Shown here: positions 1 to 59,585 of the stretch, piece by piece
Numbering within the stretch: position 1 is the stretch's first letter
How the letters are laid out: each line of letters opens with the position of its first letter
Source of the DNA: an uncultured Bacilli bacterium
Lineage (GTDB): Bacteria; Bacillota_I; Bacilli_A; RF39; UBA660
Reading direction: 5' to 3'
DNA: 64,000 nt
Assembly: GCA_934131695.1 (NCBI GenBank)
Contig: CAKOZV010000001.1
Span: 10,060-74,059 of the forward strand
Notes under the pieces: model-generated
Seen by the model: the letters and a program-made list of their open reading frames with translations, nothing else
What the model was told of the DNA's origin: nothing
Database searches by the model: none
Translations under genes and position numbers: made by a program

Positions 1-316
1 TTATACCTTTACCTTAAAAAATACTGGTACTAGAACTATAACATATGATGTTTATCTTGATGATGATAGTGATTGTACTGATTGTGCAACCTTCACTCAT
101 AGCTTCTTATCATATGATTTAAAGAAAGATGGGACATCAGTATCAAATGGGAAACTATCAACTAGTAGCAATAAATTAGGTTCTTATTCAATAGCAGGTA
201 ATACTACTCAAAACTTTGAATTTCGTTTATGGTTAAACTTAGATGCTACAAACGATGTTATGGCAAAATCTTTCTACAGTAGAATAAGAGTAGAAGCTAC
301 TGAGCAAGTTGATTAA
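1..316 (+). CDS. 3' end of an unidentified secreted/surface-type protein (5' part outside window)
   Basis: The frame with codons starting at nt 2 is open from the window edge to TAA 314-316 (YTFTLKNTGTRTITYDVYLDDDSDCTDC...FYSRIRVEATEQVD*). Composition is Thr/Ser/Asn-rich. A hairpin terminator follows directly. No family recognised with confidence. Confidence 0.45.
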   Translation, partial: YTFTLKNTGTRTITYDVYLDDDSDCTDCATFTHSFLSYDLKKDGTSVSNGKLSTSSNKLGSYSIAGNTTQNFEFRLWLNLDATNDVMAKSFYSRIRVEATEQVD

Positions 317-2797: not shown

Positions 2798-5284
2798 ATG
2801 GGATTATTTACAAGATTATTTGATCATGAATATAAAGAATTAAAAAAATTTGAATCTTTAGCAGACAAAATAGTAGCCTTAGATGAAGACTATCAAAAGT
2901 TATCTGATGAAGAGTTAAAGAATAAAACAGAGGAATTTAAGAAACGTTTAGAAAATGGAGAAACACTAGAAGATATTTTAGTAGAAGCTTTTGCTACCGC
3001 AAGAGAAGCAGCTTATCGTGTTATAGGAGAAAAACCTTTCTATGTTCAGATACTAGGTGCTTTAGCAATACACTATGGTAATATAGCAGAAATGAAAACT
3101 GGTGAAGGAAAAACACTAACATCCGTTTTACCAGCTTACTTAAATGCATTAGATGGAAAAGGAGTACATATCATTACTGTTAACGAATATCTAGCTACTC
3201 GTGATGCTGAATGGATGGGTGGAATTCATAGATTTTTAGGTCTAACAGTAGGAGTTAATACAAGAGAATTAAGTCCTAAAGAAAAGCAAGAAGCTTATGC
3301 TTGTGATATTTTATATTCTACTAATAATGAAATTGGATTTGATTATCTAAGAGACAATATGGTTATTAGAAAAGAAGATAGAGTACAAAGACCATTAAAT
3401 TTTGCTATCGTTGATGAGGTTGATTCAGTATTAATAGATGAAGCAAGAACTCCATTAATTATTTCTGGTGGACAATTAGTTAGTGCAAACCTTTATCAAG
3501 ATGCTGATAGCTTTGTTAAAGGATTAAAAGATGATGTGGATTATCTATATGATGAAACTACTAAGAGTGTAACATTAACTGATGAAGGTAGTGAAAAAGC
3601 AGAAAAAGCTTTTCGAGTTAAAAATCTTTATGAAGTAGAAAATGCAACTTTAGTACATTATATTAATCAAGCTTTAAGAGCAAACTATTCTATGAAATTA
3701 GATGTAGATTATGTTGTTCAAGATGGAGAAGTTGTCATAGTAGACCAATTTACTGGACGTTTGATGAAAGGACGTGCTTATAGTGATGGACTTCATCAAG
3801 CAATTGAAGCTAAAGAAGGAGTTCGTATTAATCAAGAAACTAAAACTTTAGCAACTATTACTTTCCAAAACTTATTTAGAATGTATAAAAAATTATCTGG
3901 TATGACTGGTACTGCTAAAACAGAAGAAGAAGAGTTCCGTGATATTTATAATATGTATGTTATTTGTATTCCAACTAATAAACCAGTTGAAAGAATTGAT
4001 GCTTCTGACTTAGTATTTGCTACTAAAAATGCTAAGTATAAAGCTATTATTAATGAAGTAAAAGAAAGATATGCTAAAGGTCAACCAGTATTAATTGGTA
4101 CTATTGCTATTGAAACTAGTGAATTAATAAGTGCTTTATTAAAGAAAGAAAAGATTCCACATGAAATATTAAATGCTAAGAATCATGCAAGAGAAGCTGA
4201 AATTATTTCTAAAATTGGTCAACATAAGTCAGTTACTATCGCTACTAATATGGCTGGTCGTGGTACTGATATTAAATTATCAGATGAGATAAGAGCACTT
4301 GGTGGATTATGTGTTATTGGTACTGAACGTCATGAATCTCGTCGTATTGATAATCAGTTAAGAGGACGTTCTGGTCGTCAAGGAGATCCTGGATTTACAC
4401 AGTTCTTTGTATCTATGGAAGATGATTTAATGGTTCGCTTTGGTAGTGAAAAAATTAAAGAAATGATGACTAGTTTTGGATTTGGTGATCAAGCTATTCA
4501 AAACAAATACTTTTCTAAAGCTATTACAACTGCTCAAAAAAGAGTTGAAGGAAATAACTTTGATGCTAGAAAACAATTATTACAATATGATGATGTAATG
4601 AATACTCAACGTGAAATCATGTATGGTAGAAGAAATGAAATACTAGATAGTGAATCTGTTCATGAACAAGTTCTTGAATGTATGAGAAATTATGTTACTG
4701 ACTTAGTTAAGTCACATACTATAGATGGTATTTTAAGTGAACAAGATAAGAAAGAAATAGTATCTTTTGCTAACGAAAATTTACTAGATAAAGATATTAC
4801 TGAAAATGATATTAGTTCACTATTAGATGATGATATGATAGACTTCTTATATAATAAAGCAAAAGAGGAATATGAAGAAAAACTTAGTGATGTTCCAGTA
4901 GAAATAACTAGTGAATTTGAAAAAGCATTATCTTTACAAGTCATTGATAACTATTGGATGGAACAAATTAATGTAATGAGTCACTTACGTGAAGGTATCT
5001 ATTTACGTAGTTATGGTCAAGAAGATCCATTAAGAGCATATAGTACTGAAGGATTTGATTTATTTGATCAAATGTTACAAAAGATTGATCATGATGTTAC
5101 TATATTCTTACTAAAAGCAGAAATACAAAAAACTGTTGAAAGAAAACCAGTTACAAGAAATGTTCAAACTAATGATGATAAATCAGATTCAGTAAAGAAA
5201 CCAAAGAAAAGTAAAAAAGTAGGACGTAATGATCCTTGTCCATGTGGTTCAGGAAAAAAATATAAACAATGTTGTGGTAAATAA
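2798..5284 (+). CDS. secA: Preprotein translocase ATPase SecA
   Basis: 828 aa. Motor motifs MKTGEGKT, DEVDSVLIDEARTPLIISG and TNMAGRGTDI. C-terminal zinc-binding SEC-C motif CPCGSGKKYKQCCGK. Confidence 0.97.
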   Translation: MGLFTRLFDHEYKELKKFESLADKIVALDEDYQKLSDEELKNKTEEFKKRLENGETLEDILVEAFATAREAAYRVIGEKPFYVQILGALAIHYGNIAEMKTGEGKTLTSVLPAYLNALDGKGVHIITVNEYLATRDAEWMGGIHRFLGLTVGVNTRELSPKEKQEAYACDILYSTNNEIGFDYLRDNMVIRKEDRVQRPLNFAIVDEVDSVLIDEARTPLIISGGQLVSANLYQDADSFVKGLKDDVDYLYDETTKSVTLTDEGSEKAEKAFRVKNLYEVENATLVHYINQALRANYSMKLDVDYVVQDGEVVIVDQFTGRLMKGRAYSDGLHQAIEAKEGVRINQETKTLATITFQNLFRMYKKLSGMTGTAKTEEEEFRDIYNMYVICIPTNKPVERIDASDLVFATKNAKYKAIINEVKERYAKGQPVLIGTIAIETSELISALLKKEKIPHEILNAKNHAREAEIISKIGQHKSVTIATNMAGRGTDIKLSDEIRALGGLCVIGTERHESRRIDNQLRGRSGRQGDPGFTQFFVSMEDDLMVRFGSEKIKEMMTSFGFGDQAIQNKYFSKAITTAQKRVEGNNFDARKQLLQYDDVMNTQREIMYGRRNEILDSESVHEQVLECMRNYVTDLVKSHTIDGILSEQDKKEIVSFANENLLDKDITENDISSLLDDDMIDFLYNKAKEEYEEKLSDVPVEITSEFEKALSLQVIDNYWMEQINVMSHLREGIYLRSYGQEDPLRAYSTEGFDLFDQMLQKIDHDVTIFLLKAEIQKTVERKPVTRNVQTNDDKSDSVKKPKKSKKVGRNDPCPCGSGKKYKQCCGK

Positions 5285-46663: not shown

Positions 46664-47041
46664 GGGGATGTCTTGGTTTCGACAGGAATAGTAGAGCATA
46701 GATAGCAAGTCGAATTATCTACGTCACAGATTAAACCAGAATAACTGGAAACAAAATTAAAAATGTACTTGCAAACTTTGGTGGAAACACTAGTTTAGCA
46801 TTTGCCTAAGAATAGGCTTGTACGCTGTCTTTCTTAATTTCTTACGTTAAGAATGTACGGTTCAATTTAGTAAGATATAATTATTTATCGTCTTAGTAAA
46901 TAATTGAATATTATAAGACTAGAATTATAGTTTGGTTGATTATTTCTTTACTATAATTCGAATTTAATAAATAATCTAAACTTGTAGAAGTTTATGTAGC
47001 TCTATTTTTGGACAGGGGTTCGATACCCCTCATCTCCACCA
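46664..47041 (+). ncRNA. ssrA: tmRNA (ssrA)
   Basis: The 5' end GGGGATGTCTTGGTTTCGACAGG pairs with the 3' tRNA-like end GGACAGGGGTTCGATACCCCTCATCTCCACCA. The internal tag frame ends at TAA 46807-46809 (..GNKIKNVLANFGGNTSLAFA*). An extended -10, TGTTATAAT, lies at 46644-46652. Confidence 0.9.
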
Positions 47042-54382: not shown

Positions 54383-54458
54383 GCCGACTTAGCTTAGCTG
54401 GTAGAGCAACGCACTCGTAACGCGTAGGTCGAAGGTTCGAATCCTTTAGTCGGCACCA
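54383..54458 (+). tRNA. tRNA-Thr (anticodon CGT)
   Basis: Manual cloverleaf: acceptor gccgact/agtcggc, D arm gctt..gagc, anticodon loop ctCGTaa, T arm gaagg-ttcgaat-ccttt, encoded CCA. 76 nt. A terminator hairpin with T7 follows at 54500-54522. Confidence 0.9.
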
Positions 54459-55564: not shown

Positions 55565-56074
55565 ATGTGTATAGGAGTAGTTATGAGTAAAGAAAATACA
55601 AAGTCAAATAAATTAATAATAGTGGCGTTTACTTTATATGTTTTATTACTAACTTGGATTATTGTCTTTAAATTTAGATTAAACTTATCGGATTTAAAAT
55701 ATATAAGAACAATTAACATTATTCCTTTTAAAGCTAATGGAGTAGTCAATGGAATGAGAGAAACAATTATCAATTTAGTTTTATTTATTCCTTTAGGAAT
55801 GTATCTAAAATATCTTTTAAATGATAGAAAAATTTTAAGTATAATTATAATTTCTTCAACTTCACTTTTATTTGAAATATTACAATACATCTTTCATATT
55901 GGTGTATCAGATATAACAGATATTATTATGAACACTATAGGTGGTATCATAGGAATGATTTTAATGATGATATTTCTTTCAATAACTAAGAAAAATAATA
56001 TATTAAATAAAACTTTAGATTATCTATTAATATTTTTACCACTAGTAATGTTTTTAGGACTATTTATAATTTAA
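55565..56074 (+). CDS. VanZ-family membrane protein
   Basis: 169 aa with 4-5 TM helices. Motifs NIIPFK, NLVLFIPLG, E.LQ and DITDIIMNTIGG are typical of VanZ-like proteins. Confidence 0.7.
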   Translation: MCIGVVMSKENTKSNKLIIVAFTLYVLLLTWIIVFKFRLNLSDLKYIRTINIIPFKANGVVNGMRETIINLVLFIPLGMYLKYLLNDRKILSIIIISSTSLLFEILQYIFHIGVSDITDIIMNTIGGIIGMILMMIFLSITKKNNILNKTLDYLLIFLPLVMFLGLFII

Positions 56075-56186
56075 TAAAAAGAAAGATAACAATGGTATTT
56101 TGTATAATATGGAAGATATTATAAAGGCTTACAAAAATGATATAATAGATGGTGAACAAATTACACTATTTTAATTATATAACTAC

Positions 56187-57062
56187 ATGAAAGGAATCGT
56201 TATGAGAAAAGAAGATATTATAAGAGATGAAAGGTTTAGACAGAAATGTAATTTATATGGTTTAAGTTGGGATGATTTTAGTTTAGGTCATCAAGAAATA
56301 TATGTAAATAATTCAACAAATAATATGTGTGTATTGCTCAATAATAATTATAATACGATAAACGTATTTGACTGGAATAAAGATTTTTGGTCTTGTTCTG
56401 ATGAAAAAATGATGTACAATTATTGTAAAGTTCATGGGATAATACCACTAAGCGAATGGTCATGTTATCCAATTCAAAAGTTTACCTTAAAACAGATAAT
56501 AAAGTTATCTAATATAACTGAAATATTAGAATCCACAGATAATCAAATAATAAGTATGAAAATAAATGGTAGCCTATATAATATTCAACAAGATAAGAAT
56601 GACAAAACCATTCAACTGCTATCTTACATAAAATTTTTAGGTGATGAATTAGAACTGTACTTTACAACAAGTTATCATTTTCAATCCATTGGTCTTGAGG
56701 TTCCAGACGTTTATTCTTATCTTGAAATTCTGATTAATAAAATAAATAATTATATCAAGAGTAATAATCAGGTATTACCAAATGATATTTTAGAACATAT
56801 TGGACGAAACGGTATGAACATACATACAAGTGCAATTTTATCAAATGTGATTGATTTAATTAAAAATGAAAAAAAAGTTGAAGACGAATCAGATGATTTA
56901 ACAGTAGCAACAAATAATTTATTGAAGATACTAGATAAAAGTGCTGATGAAATAAATAATTATAAAAAAAATAACAATCCGTTATCAACTGCTGATAATT
57001 ATGATTCATTTAAATCAACTGATGAAAAAAGAGTGGTATTAACAAAGGTGAAAAATAAATAA
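56187..57062 (+). CDS. Hypothetical protein
   Basis: 291 aa with no recognisable domain. Confidence 0.4.
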   Translation: MKGIVMRKEDIIRDERFRQKCNLYGLSWDDFSLGHQEIYVNNSTNNMCVLLNNNYNTINVFDWNKDFWSCSDEKMMYNYCKVHGIIPLSEWSCYPIQKFTLKQIIKLSNITEILESTDNQIISMKINGSLYNIQQDKNDKTIQLLSYIKFLGDELELYFTTSYHFQSIGLEVPDVYSYLEILINKINNYIKSNNQVLPNDILEHIGRNGMNIHTSAILSNVIDLIKNEKKVEDESDDLTVATNNLLKILDKSADEINNYKKNNNPLSTADNYDSFKSTDEKRVVLTKVKNK

Positions 57063-57083
57063 TAGTAAGGGAGAAGATAAATA

Positions 57084-57611
57084 ATGAATAAAACATTAGA
57101 AGATTTAAAAAGTAGAAGAAGTTGTAGAAACTTCAAAAATGATATGATAACTGAAAAAGAATTAGAGGCTGTTATAGAAACTGGTACTTATGCTCCAACT
57201 GGACATGGAAAACAATCACCAATTATTATAGCAATAACTAATAAAGAAATACGTGATAAAGTTGCTGAAGAGAATAGAAAAATAGCTGACTTTAAAGAAG
57301 AGATTGATCCATTTTATGGAGCACCAGTTATTTTAGCAGTCTTAGCTGACAAAACTGTACCAACCTATATTTATGATGGAAGTTTAGTTCTTGGTAATAT
57401 GTTAAATGCTGCTGAAAGTTTAGGCTTGGGTAGCATTTGGATCCATAGAGCAAAGGAAGAATTTGAATTACCTTTTGGAAAAGAATTACTTAAAAATTTA
57501 GGAATAGAAGGAGACTATGAGGGGATTGGTTTTTGTGCATTAGGTTACAAAAATAAAGAAACTCCAAAAGCAACTCCTCGTAAAGATAATTATATATATT
57601 ATATAAGATAA
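57084..57611 (+). CDS. Nitroreductase-family protein
   Basis: RRSCRNF N-terminal motif and overall nitroreductase layout. 175 aa. Confidence 0.8.
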   Translation: MNKTLEDLKSRRSCRNFKNDMITEKELEAVIETGTYAPTGHGKQSPIIIAITNKEIRDKVAEENRKIADFKEEIDPFYGAPVILAVLADKTVPTYIYDGSLVLGNMLNAAESLGLGSIWIHRAKEEFELPFGKELLKNLGIEGDYEGIGFCALGYKNKETPKATPRKDNYIYYIR

Positions 57612-57635
57612 TATTATTATAGGATGTGAAAATTT

Positions 57636-58151
57636 ATGAATGAAATAATGAAAATAATGGATACTATTGAGTATGGTTTTTTAGATAATTCTTCAAATGA
57701 TATCTTTAAAGATAAAGATGTAGAGCAAGTTTTTAATAAAATTTATTATCTTATGTCACCAGAAGAATTATTAGTAAAAAAGAAAGGCGTCTGTTGGGAT
57801 CAAGTGGAATTAGAAAGAAAACTATTTACAAACAATAGTATTAAAAACAAAACATACTTCATATATGTAGATAATCATGATACACTACCATCACATACTT
57901 TTCTTGTATTTTATAAGAATAATAAAGTCTACTGGTTTGAACATTCTTGGTATGATGAAAAAGGTATTCATGAGTATAATACTTTGAATGAGTTATTGTT
58001 AGATGTTAAAGAAAAGTTTTTAAGTAGTAGAAAAGATGAAATAGAATCAACTGATAAAGTTCATTTATATGAATATCAAAAACCTAAAAAATATCACCTT
58101 AGTTGTGAAGAGTTTTATCAATATATATTTACTCAAGAGAAAATATATTAA
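57636..58151 (+). CDS. Hypothetical protein (possible Cys-His hydrolase fold)
   Basis: 171 aa. The KKGVCWDQ and SHTF contexts hint at a transglutaminase or papain-like fold. This is speculative. Confidence 0.35.
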   Translation: MNEIMKIMDTIEYGFLDNSSNDIFKDKDVEQVFNKIYYLMSPEELLVKKKGVCWDQVELERKLFTNNSIKNKTYFIYVDNHDTLPSHTFLVFYKNNKVYWFEHSWYDEKGIHEYNTLNELLLDVKEKFLSSRKDEIESTDKVHLYEYQKPKKYHLSCEEFYQYIFTQEKIY

Positions 58152-58217
58152 AAAATAAAGTCCTGATAGGTCATAAAGCATCTTGTTAAAAGCTGTTTTA
58201 TATGATACTATTAGTAT

Positions 58218-58352
58218 GTAAGTAAGACTACTTGCATACAATAAAAAAAGGGAGTACTTAACTTTGCGTTGTTGAGTACTTGCCCTAAAATTAAGTTATA
58301 CTTAATCTAGACAGAGTACTTAATCTACACTTAGATTGAGTACTATTTTTTT
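58218..58352 (+). ncRNA. Candidate antisense (antitoxin) sRNA of a type I TA locus
   Basis: Promoter-like TTGTTA (58183-58188), 17 bp, TACTAT (58206-58211) with an upstream TG. 5' hairpin at 58214-58239. Strong terminator: 13-bp stem agtacttaatcta/tagattgagtact (58315-58344) plus T7 (58346-52). It would be complementary to the 3' end of the minus-strand peptide mRNA. Confidence 0.35.
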
Positions 58353-58432
58353 ATGCATAGAATCATTAAAGAGACTATTAATAAAATGATAATTAGTATT
58401 AGAAATGAGATTAGTAAATCTTTTTTCTTCAT
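58343..58432 (-). CDS. 29-aa hydrophobic peptide, candidate type I toxin
   Basis: Not in the ORF track. GGAGGC RBS (58446-58441), 8 nt, then ATG 58432. Translation is MKKKDLLISFLILIIILLIVSLMILCIKK*. Upstream on the minus strand is TTGTTT (58526-58521), 17 bp, TATAAT (58503-58498). Downstream is the hairpin gggcaagtact..agtactccc plus T7 (58287-58243). Confidence 0.5.
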   Translation of the reverse strand: MKKKDLLISFLILIIILLIVSLMILCIKK

Positions 58433-58697
58433 AATATCAAGCCTCCTTCCTATAAGAAGTCGGCAAGTACTCGAACAGTTAGTATTCCCTGTGCTTAATT
58501 ATACTATTTGCGTTCTGTAAAAACAATTTAACTATTAATTTTTTAGTAAAATCCGTAGTAATTTGAGTTAGTATTTAATTGTAAAATAACAAAAATGCTA
58601 ACTATTTTTTTTAATAAAATTATGCTATACTCAATATATCATTTGTGATTATCTAGAAAAGTATATCATAATATGATAAAAGAAAGGTTGGTTATTA

Positions 58698-59585
58698 ATG
58701 ATAATTGATGTTATAAGAGGTTTTTTTATGGCACTAGCTGATAGTGTGCCAGGAGTAAGTGGTGGAACAATAGCATTTTTAATGGGATTTTTTGATAAAT
58801 TTATTAATTCATTAAATTATTTAATGAAAGGAACAAAAGAGGAAAGAATTAAATCAATAAAATTCTTAGCAAAACTATTCTTAGGATGGATTATTGGAAT
58901 GGGCTTAGCTGTCACTATCTTAGCTAACTTATTTGATAAAGAAATATATAAGATGAGTTCCTTATTCTTAGGGTTTATAATAGCAGCAATTCCCGTTATG
59001 ATTATTGAAGAAAAAGAGACAGTTAAAGGAAAATATATAAATATAATATGGGCTATTGTAGGAGCTTTAGCAGTTATACTACTATCATCATTAAAGATGG
59101 GAAGTAATCTAGACCTAACTCACTTAAATATAGGAATGCTTATCTATATCTTTATTGCTGGAATGCTTGCTATCTCTGCTATGGTTTTACCAGGAATATC
59201 AGGATCTACTATACTTTTATCATTTGGACTATATATACCAGTGATAAGCGGTGTTAAAGATTTTATTCATTTTGACTTTAGTAGTTTTCCCCTTTTATTA
59301 GCACTAGGACTTGGAATCTTGTTTGGAGTAGCTACAGTACTAAGAATAATTAAAAAACTATTAGATAAACATCGTTCTGCCATGGTATATGCTATTATTG
59401 GAATGATGTTAGGTTCATTATATGCTATAGTAATAGGACCAACAACGCTAAAAGTACCACAAGCTGCAATGACTATTAAAACATTTAGTATTTTATTCTT
59501 TATTATAGGAGCAGTAATAGTAGTTGCTTTTCAACAACTTAAAAATCTTCCATTTTATAAAAAACAAATAGCTGAAGATGAATAA
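58698..59585 (+). CDS. DUF368-family membrane protein (polyprenyl-phosphate transporter family)
   Basis: Duplicated signature motifs ADSVPGVSGGTIAF and VLPGISGSTILL. 295 aa and polytopic. Confidence 0.8.
   Translation: MIIDVIRGFFMALADSVPGVSGGTIAFLMGFFDKFINSLNYLMKGTKEERIKSIKFLAKLFLGWIIGMGLAVTILANLFDKEIYKMSSLFLGFIIAAIPVMIIEEKETVKGKYINIIWAIVGALAVILLSSLKMGSNLDLTHLNIGMLIYIFIAGMLAISAMVLPGISGSTILLSFGLYIPVISGVKDFIHFDFSSFPLLLALGLGILFGVATVLRIIKKLLDKHRSAMVYAIIGMMLGSLYAIVIGPTTLKVPQAAMTIKTFSILFFIIGAVIVVAFQQLKNLPFYKKQIAEDE

Follow-up and report, generated by a model that had tools for sequence, protein, structure and literature searches.

A putative type I toxin-antitoxin family with a 5′–3′ mRNA lock in uncultured gut Bacilli

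In the 64,000-nt stretch of contig CAKOZV010000001.1 analyzed here (assembly GCA_934131695.1, from an uncultured Bacilli bacterium; hereafter the window), which has a GC content of 26.7%, a gap of 546 bp separates a DUF553/transglutaminase-like gene from a gene for a PopT-like polyprenyl-phosphate transporter. A preliminary description of this DNA placed in the gap a hidden locus resembling type I toxin-antitoxin systems, with a 29-aa hydrophobic peptide encoded opposite a convergent antisense RNA. Does the gap indeed hold such a module, or would a harmless small gene, an intergenic repeat or mere chance account for its contents? On comparative sequence evidence we consider it likely that the locus is a self-contained type I toxin-antitoxin module with the Gram-positive 3′-overlap layout, belonging to a family not described before. 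Its elements, numbered by window position, are the following.

58498-58526, minus strand: promoter of the toxin mRNA, read directly, with -35 box TTGTTT (58526-58521), a 17-nt spacer and -10 box TATAAT (58503-58498).
58243-58492, minus strand: predicted toxin mRNA of ~250 nt, its ends placed from the -10 box and the terminator.
58462-58490, minus strand: 5′ leader arm of a 5′–3′ lock, AGGGAAUACUAAC UGUUC GAGUACUUGCC, pairing with 58285-58250.
58446-58459, minus strand: anti-Shine-Dalgarno (anti-SD) hairpin, CUUCU (58459-58455) with GGAAG (58450-58446), the latter being the 5′ part of the SD sequence.
58442-58448, minus strand: SD sequence AAGGAGG, 9 nt before ATG 58432.
58343-58432, minus strand: open reading frame (ORF) of 29 aa, MKKKDLLISFLILIIILLIVSLMILCIKK, putative toxin, with TAG stop codon at 58345-58343.
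58344-58315, minus strand: post-stop hairpin, with no U-run on this strand.
58286-58309, unstranded: 24-nt insertion of a subgroup, giving an extra small hairpin (stem-loop SL3 of the antisense RNA).
58243-58285, minus strand: terminator hairpin of the mRNA, with arms 58285-58271 and 58262-58250, then T7 (58249-58243).
58183-58211, plus strand: antisense promoter, with -35 box TTGTTA (58183-58188), a 17-nt spacer, TG (58203-58204) and -10 box TACTAT (58206-58211).
58218-58352, plus strand: predicted antisense RNA (putative antitoxin) of ~135 nt.
58215-58238, plus strand: 5′ stem-loop of the antisense RNA (SL1), beyond the end of the mRNA.
58315-58352, plus strand: intrinsic terminator of the antisense RNA, a 13-bp hairpin (58315-58344) plus T7.

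Direct reading of the sequence confirmed the parts listed in the preliminary description, since the minus-strand promoter, ribosome-binding site, ORF and two hairpins all lie where it had put them, as do the plus-strand promoter with its TG extension, the 5′ stem-loop and the 13-bp terminator with T7 over the stop codon. The two predicted RNAs are convergent and perfectly complementary over ~110 nt (58243-58352), from the stop codon through the mRNA terminator, and this layout, too, was borne out by its conservation in ~100 related cassettes. Each RNA has a separate terminator (minus, 58285-58243; plus, 58315-58352), the antisense RNA reading through the complement of that of the mRNA. The antisense terminator overlaps the final three ORF codons together with the stop, and its complement is the post-stop hairpin of the mRNA. 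Both arms of the mRNA terminator double as 3′ partners of the lock, and the plus-strand form of the same segment is antisense hairpin SL2, to which the leader is nearly identical in sequence. The antisense terminator was the only terminator-like site in 1.7 kb (0.2 expected), AGGAGG-N5-10-ATG occurs six times in the 64-kb window (1.7 expected), and four of the five window copies of GAGTACTT fall inside the locus. Folding gave −70 kcal/mol for the predicted mRNA and −42.8 kcal/mol for the predicted antisense RNA, each with z = −6.4 and with none of 200 shuffles as good. The 24-nt insertion at 58286-58309 is a partial duplication of an arm of the post-stop hairpin; it is common to L068:1801, L067:198, L140, L106 and L083 and is lacking in most family members.

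Relatives were retrieved from one genome per GTDB species using the two lock arms as a pattern, GAGTACTTGCC-N155-185-GGCAAGTACTC, which returned 17 loci with 18 copies, all in distinct species (~2 expected by chance, by our own estimate from the pattern and the collection size). A second pattern, from which the lock arms were left out, recovered 70 loci in metagenomes of the human gut, the rumen and comparable habitats, and a profile search over all loci brought the family to ~100 near-full copies, 89 of them unique, adding divergent paralogs that adjoin pattern-found copies. The preliminary description had proposed a search for further copies both in this genome and in relatives: the relatives supplied them, and none was found elsewhere in the window by tblastn or blastn. 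The hosts comprise at least 17 species of uncultured gut Bacilli, the loci all having 21-36% GC, and their metagenome-assembled genomes include uncultured Bacilli, "Coprobacillus sp. CAG:605", "Clostridium sp. CAG:609" and "Firmicutes bacterium CAG:822". Three cassette-bearing contigs (L060, L070, L071) are assigned to Muribaculaceae, yet have 26-30% GC like the other loci, and have probably been mis-binned, being Bacilli contigs. NCBI taxonomy uses the name 'Candidatus Scybalousia' (L069) ambiguously, for a Bacteroidales genus and as the former name of a Bacilli genus.

In alignments, homology within the family runs from the -35 box of the mRNA promoter to that of the antisense promoter, which defines a cassette of ~320 bp that is always intergenic. 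In 82 of 86 copies the mRNA promoter, TTGnnn-16..18-TAnnnT, stands at the same position, its distance upstream of the leader being constant (TATAAT in 55), and the antisense promoter is conserved at its position downstream of the mRNA terminator, on the opposite strand, in 80 of 86 (with the TG extension in 68). It is this fixed-position conservation that supports the promoters. Hexamers alone are uninformative because the DNA has 27% GC and shuffles are richer in such sites: a consensus scan found fewer of them in the real region than in shuffled sequence. Together with an ORF intact in 87 of the 89 unique copies and with compensatory RNA helices, the conserved promoters support the type I-like layout proposed initially. 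At three loci (L066:2404-2488, L087 and L101), the usual place of the antisense promoter is taken by a tRNA-Leu(tag) gene, which runs on the antisense strand and ends there with its 3′ part; judging from this arrangement, the antitoxin RNA may there be co-transcribed with a tRNA-Met/tRNA-Leu pair and freed by tRNA processing.

Covariation in the mRNA was assessed in 57 non-redundant sequences (alignment A3) for a consensus structure consisting of the two-part lock, the anti-SD hairpin and the post-stop hairpin. Across its 40 pairs, 91.9% of alignment cells were paired, as compared to 31-47% when the 3′ partners were slid by 1-3 columns, and 24 of the 40 pairs had changed on both sides (8.3 in shuffles), with none of 500 shuffles scoring as high on any measure. 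The compensatory changes came chiefly from the flanking paralogs recovered by the profile search. Within this structure, the lock comprises 26 bp between the leader and both terminator arms, the terminator loop being left as a bulge; half of its pairs (13/26) carry double changes, and the pairing is assigned to the mRNA strand because the frequent G-U pairs fall there. The preliminary description had noted a possible lock from an 11-nt inverted repeat, which is indeed present and exact (58274-58284 / 58462-58472), although it understated the extent of the pairing.

An alignment-free test agreed with this structure, with leader-tail duplexes averaging −34 kcal/mol as compared to −11 kcal/mol for shuffled tails. 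In five divergent paralogs whose arms are wholly different (e.g., GUGUCGUCCUC / GAGGUGACAU), cognate pairing reached −31 to −37 kcal/mol, whereas cross-pairing with window-type partners gave only −8 to −22 kcal/mol, and the own tail of each ranked first or second among 85 tails.

The SD sequence appears to be held locally. The anti-SD hairpin contributes four consensus pairs, three of them compensatory, including one that is C-G in 29 sequences and U-A in 20. In every modelled state the region from SD to AUG was predicted to be ~70-75% paired (~0.25-0.3 unpaired), and the predicted accessibility of the SD did not alter in nascent, 3′-blocked, 3′-truncated, 5′-truncated or lock-free forms. Control of the SD as the main role of the lock was dismissed for this reason: the SD would be held by the anti-SD hairpin, not by the lock.

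The antisense RNA was examined in the same manner in 56 sequences (alignment A5), its structure being made up of SL1, SL2 and the terminator. The 26 consensus pairs were paired in 95.7% of cells (27-40% when slid), and 16 of them showed changes on both sides, again with none of 500 shuffles as high. Three of the four pairs in the SL1 core are compensatory, among them one that occurs as C-G (33 sequences), G-U (9), U-G (3) and A-U (2), and so are nine of the 11 pairs of the terminator. SL2 is 99% paired. One pair each of SL2 and the terminator is a near-universal U-G wobble on the antisense strand (52/56 and 49/56 sequences); on the mRNA strand both would be C-A mismatches, and the hairpins are thus more stable on the antisense strand, which is direct evidence of selection on that strand as an RNA in its own right. 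In addition, the T-run after the antisense terminator is also kept in those subfamilies in which it lies outside the Lys-Lys-stop codons. Wobble pairs specific to one or the other strand point to selection on both at the RNA level, and helices with covariation number seven in all, four in the mRNA and three in the antisense RNA.

That the module is a discrete unit was seen from contigs of gut metagenomes that encode an identical DUF553 protein (L001-L010). The relevant features surrounding the locus are:

57636-58151, plus strand: DUF553/transglutaminase-like gene.
58174-58584, unstranded: presence/absence segment of 411 bp with the whole module inside, represented by ~15 nt in other strains.
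58698-59585, plus strand: PopT-like polyprenyl-phosphate transporter gene.

Seven of these contigs bear the locus (L001-L005, L008, L009), and three (L006, L007, L010) have ~15 nt in place of 58174-58584 between flanks that are ~99% identical: 98.7-99.3% over window positions 57636-58173 on the left and, from 58585 rightwards, 99% in L006 and L007 and 89% in L010, close to the contig end. The left edge of the indel lies a few bases from the plus-strand -35 box and its right edge 58 nt upstream of the -35 box on the minus strand. Either an insertion or a deletion of the 411 bp would account for the difference in this outgroup-free comparison.

The main rival to a toxin-antitoxin module would be a small membrane protein that is harmless, such as a regulator or subunit of a transporter, whose gene happens to be under cis-antisense and structural control with no toxin-antitoxin pair involved. 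Toxicity of the peptide is an inference, and the distance of the cassette from a PopT-like transporter gene is a fixed 171 nt in several genomes, as would befit such a protein. Weak sub-threshold matches of the peptide to MgtR, KdpF and SecE point the same way; however, at E > 0.03 they are far below cut-offs and are noise from hydrophobic composition. Moreover, at least 50 flanking-gene contexts were found, with no constant partner gene, and the ten flanking genes checked were all ordinary chromosomal genes. Cassettes occur as head-to-tail tandem copies at 12 of 87 loci, 46-130 nt apart and 66-100% identical over the overlap region, with copy-specific RNA pairing in the diverging paralogs; their presence varies between strains, and in some genomes they have decayed. 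It is because of the tandem paralogs, the at least 50 contexts, presence/absence and the occasional decayed copies that we ascribe type I behavior to the family. Three predicted layers of suppression (anti-SD hairpin, lock and antisense RNA) likewise fit type I toxin loci better than a harmless protein, which we regard as unlikely.

A second alternative discards the peptide altogether and sees in the cassette a non-coding intergenic repeat, i.e., a structured RNA or a terminator-rich element akin to miniature inverted-repeat transposable elements or repetitive extragenic palindromes, whose small ORF is a by-product of AT-rich DNA. The cassette is in fact a dispersed, hairpin-rich intergenic repeat of ~320 bp, often located beside tRNA genes (~10 copies within ~100 nt); random ORFs in AT-rich DNA would give peptides rich in I, L, K and F; and in the main subfamily the stretch occupied by the ORF is open in two other frames as well. 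What makes this explanation very improbable is the ORF itself. With a well-spaced strong SD and an ATG, present in every ORF-bearing copy, it is intact in 87 of 89 copies, so that the small ORF proved conserved in homologous intergenic regions, one of the points on which the preliminary description had staked its proposal. The ~55 peptide variants are Lys-flanked and hydrophobic, and the ORF has been kept across subfamilies that differ in nucleotides, peptide length (24-30 aa) and stop position; subfamilies with as little as 34-63% peptide identity to the window peptide still keep SD, ATG and hydrophobic ORF. Variants include MKKKDLLI[ST]FLILIIILLIVS.MIL.IKK, MRKIDFLVTALIIIIFLLIALLFVK, MDKKDFLILSLIIIIFLLIALLFTFVK, MSKRDYLIFFLIIIILLLIGLLYK and MKTKTFVIKVLRLIAIILLLSTLLVLAIKK.

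In the main subfamily, variability is lowest at second codon positions (0.037 vs 0.132; 3.5-fold below first and third positions), 44% of codon differences are synonymous as compared to 22% expected at random, and peptide substitutions are mostly interchanges among I, L, V, M and F. Judged by these patterns, the ORF is under coding-type constraint. In contrast, the alternative antisense frame of 55 aa (58353-58520, plus strand), open in the window, is disrupted in divergent subfamilies; it has no SD and begins past the antisense terminator, and was rejected as a gene. Nor does the cassette resemble a mobile repeat: transposon-like mobility was discarded for want of terminal inverted repeats and of a consistent target-site duplication across the family, and the element is bounded by two conserved promoters (termed outward-facing in the analysis). 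TGA terminates 4 of the 36 long ORFs of the window, so code 11 applies here and an alternative genetic code is ruled out. Finally, the idea that promoter-like sites, hairpins and an ORF merely came together by chance in AT-rich intergenic DNA, with which the abundance of promoter-like hexamers in shuffled sequence would agree, is refuted by the comparative data, namely ~100 homologous copies, seven covarying helices, folds at z = −6.4 and presence or absence as a single unit.

Several points weigh against the toxin-antitoxin module as well. Transcription, toxicity, the involvement of RNase III (ribonuclease III) and the role of the lock are inferred rather than observed. The 29-aa peptide, with ~22 consecutive hydrophobic residues, a predicted single transmembrane helix and Lys-rich ends, has a make-up that is also typical of many harmless small membrane proteins, and by sequence comparison the peptides fit no known toxin family: none of 20 diverse peptides matched a Pfam or NCBIfam family at threshold, a peptide profile found no match among PDB chains, none of eight variants was present in a collection of 15 billion proteins, and the peptide strings were not found in the literature searched. 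No link to plasmids or phages emerged from the phage, plasmid and viral collections, blastn of the cassette against plasmids and phages returning nothing and viral contigs yielding no match with the lock pattern, with an SD-plus-N-terminal-peptide pattern or with a lock-independent pattern. (A pattern of three GAGTACTT repeats did give 45 matches in viral contigs, all of them unrelated tandem repeats, and was set aside as non-specific.) As for the RNA structures, the invariance of the lock core and of the post-stop hairpin is partly due to the search patterns, the former having been fixed by the genome-scan pattern and the latter by the metagenome pattern. A helix between SD and coding region in the minimum-energy fold, although 89% paired, showed covariation no higher than shuffles. 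The route by which the antisense RNA would neutralize the mRNA, moreover, rests on analogy with RNase III systems, the predicted SD accessibility being insensitive to the lock and to a 3′ block.

With these points in mind, a type I module could operate as follows. The minus strand would give rise to the ~250-nt mRNA for the 29-aa single-helix membrane peptide, the putative toxin. This mRNA would be silent by design, its strong SD being held in the short anti-SD hairpin, which would damp translation, and its first ~28 nt would pair with both arms of its own terminator to form the 26-bp 5′–3′ closure. The lock may mainly shield both RNA ends from exonucleases, in the manner of the upstream helix of fst RNA I. 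From the plus strand, the TG-extended promoter would drive the ~135-nt antisense RNA, equipped with a protective 5′ hairpin and a terminator of its own. Pairing would most likely begin at the loop of the post-stop hairpin, then spread and displace the leader. No other segment of the alignment varies as much as this loop, and it is predicted to be accessible also when the lock is closed, which makes it plausible as the recognition site by which paralogs stay independent. RNase III would then cleave the extended duplex, as it does in txpA/RatA, bsrE/SR5 and yonT/SR6, such that the antisense RNA would act via duplex formation and degradation, not by blocking the SD. We favor this combination of local anti-SD damping, an end-protecting lock and a degradation-type antitoxin because predicted SD accessibility is low and unchanging. 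Should the antisense RNA drop, slow translation of the stable mRNA would set in, with damage to the membrane by the peptide as the expected outcome.

More tentatively, the leader might be a built-in mimic of the antitoxin, occupying the very terminator arms that the antisense RNA must bind, with control exerted by strand exchange. The closed mRNA would then be exonuclease-resistant and silent, and the antisense RNA, by evicting the leader, would create an RNase III substrate and at the same time free the 5′ end for 5′-3′ decay. We rate this elaboration as possible, though doubtful. If true, competition of a mimic in cis with an antitoxin in trans for one site would be a control logic undescribed for type I systems, and tandem paralogs would be kept from acting on one another by the variability of the recognition loop and the co-variation of the lock.

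Among known systems, the initial likening to txpA/RatA, bsrG/SR4 and fst/RNAII proved right as to layout; as to kinship, it failed both sequence and signature tests. In the 3′-overlap systems of Bacillus subtilis, the RNAs share 100-140 nt of complementarity, the ribosome-binding site sits in a 4-5-bp helix and RNase III cleaves the duplex (PMC6562991, PMC8594479). The predicted RNAs of the cassette are likewise convergent and 3′-overlapping, by 110 nt, as in txpA/RatA, bsrE/SR5, bsrG/SR4 and yonT/SR6, and a 4-5-bp helix at the ribosome-binding site and a small hydrophobic toxin are also common to both (PMC6562991). RNase III cleavage would be expected here too, with binding probably starting at terminator or recognition loops. 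In contrast, neither peptide nor RNAs are related in sequence to those of TxpA, BsrG, BsrE or YonT, with no Pfam or NCBIfam match at threshold; the cassette peptide, at 24-30 aa, is the shorter one and is charged at either end; of the ORF, no more than ~three codons and the stop are covered by the antisense RNA; the 26-bp lock of the mRNA onto its own terminator is not described in these systems; and the hosts are uncultured gut Bacilli, whose loci are not on prophages.

In fst RNA I, an upstream helix (5′-UH) sequesters the extreme 5′ end of the mRNA and is followed directly by a stem-loop (5′-SL) that sequesters the SD (PMC7472228, PMC5608710). The order of lock and anti-SD hairpin in the cassette is the same, a likeness of arrangement, the 3′ partner of the lock aside. 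Convergent promoters and a ~30-aa one-helix toxin are also shared with the Enterococcus faecalis par locus (fst/RNA II) and with the Fst/Ldr superfamily, including SprA1/SprA1AS and Lpt. However, the Fst/Ldr signature (a Trp between helix and charged C-terminal tail, and a P/D/S/T-XXX-G(C) motif) is absent from the cassette peptides, 20 diverse examples of which have only K or KK at the C-terminus, and Pfam Fst_toxin gave no match at E up to 10. Whereas par has a shared bidirectional terminator, the cassette has one for each RNA, and it does not share the direct repeats DRa/DRb, through which the par antisense RNA is complementary to the start-codon region; its own repeat GAGTACTT renders the leader similar, not complementary, to the antisense RNA. 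In the alignments no such complementarity to the start-codon region was seen, no dedicated RNA-RNA interaction search having been run.

Pairing of mRNA 5′ and 3′ ends, here supported by covariation, also occurs in hok/sok and in Helicobacter aapA1/isoA1 (for the concept, PMC8594479). There, the SD or a translational activator is masked by the long-distance pairing, whereas the cassette SD is sequestered locally, and 3′ trimming activates an mRNA whose 5′ part is targeted by the antisense RNA, whereas in the cassette the complementarity of the antisense RNA is confined to the 3′ end; the segment with which the cassette leader pairs at the 3′ end is, moreover, also the antisense target. The type I toxins of Clostridioides difficile are ~50 aa long, and their loci reside in prophages or beside CRISPR arrays. 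They have no sequence similarity to the cassette peptides, for which no prophage or CRISPR association was seen. For these loci, of which CD2517.1/RCd8 is an example, the points in common with the cassette are Firmicute gut hosts, Lys-ended small membrane toxins, convergent overlapping antisense RNAs and several copies per genome (PMC6563280, PMC5961336). Rfam holds no family matching the locus RNAs at E up to 10, and no type I family from these uncultured very low-GC gut Bacilli was found in the literature searched. The general hallmarks of type I systems are nevertheless predicted in silico, namely a small hydrophobic ORF, an antisense gene with promoter and terminator, and SD sequestration.

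A few further observations concern individual copies and the surroundings of the locus. Decayed copies (L108, L094, L116:1622-1953 and L126:190-524) comprise one frameshifted ORF, one truncated ORF and two in which the promoter and leader half is replaced by unrelated sequence, the 3′ half with the antisense RNA region being intact in the latter two. Direct repeats of 25-31 nt, ~400 nt apart, bracket some single cassettes (L065, at 2686-2710 and 3101-3125; L093; L070; L110) and look like remnants of tandem or partial duplications. In the window, an Rfam scan of the whole sequence reported only transfer-messenger RNA (tmRNA) and tRNA; the tmRNA and tRNA-Thr(cgt) genes lie upstream of the locus (46664-47041 and 54383-54458). 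In L090, the cassette is 67 nt from the same tRNA-Thr, with a tmRNA 7.4 kb off; by comparison, the window lineage seems to have an extra block of ~3.7 kb between tRNA and cassette (55565-58151 listed), containing VanZ-like, 291-aa orphan, nitroreductase and DUF553 genes. The 291-aa ORF (56187-57062), in this variable block beside the cassette, belongs to no Pfam family and has only faint sub-threshold matches to MLKL_N and the AbiJ N-terminal domain. Finally, a 6.2-kb comparison of L002 with the window showed 19 substitutions only, all within 232 bp (58787-59018) of the PopT-like gene, a cluster that looks like a short recombination tract.

If the assignment is correct, the cassette adds a type I toxin-antitoxin family to the uncultured very low-GC gut Bacilli, organisms known mostly as metagenome-assembled genomes, and does so with a multi-species module that is invisible to standard annotation for lack of a Pfam, NCBIfam or Rfam model. 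Its ~100 natural variants provide covariation-supported structures for both RNAs, and would offer a test system for the interplay of the lock with a 3′-overlapping antitoxin as well as, possibly, small RNA parts for control purposes that do not interfere with one another. In gut metagenomes, the cassette serves as a strain-level presence/absence marker.

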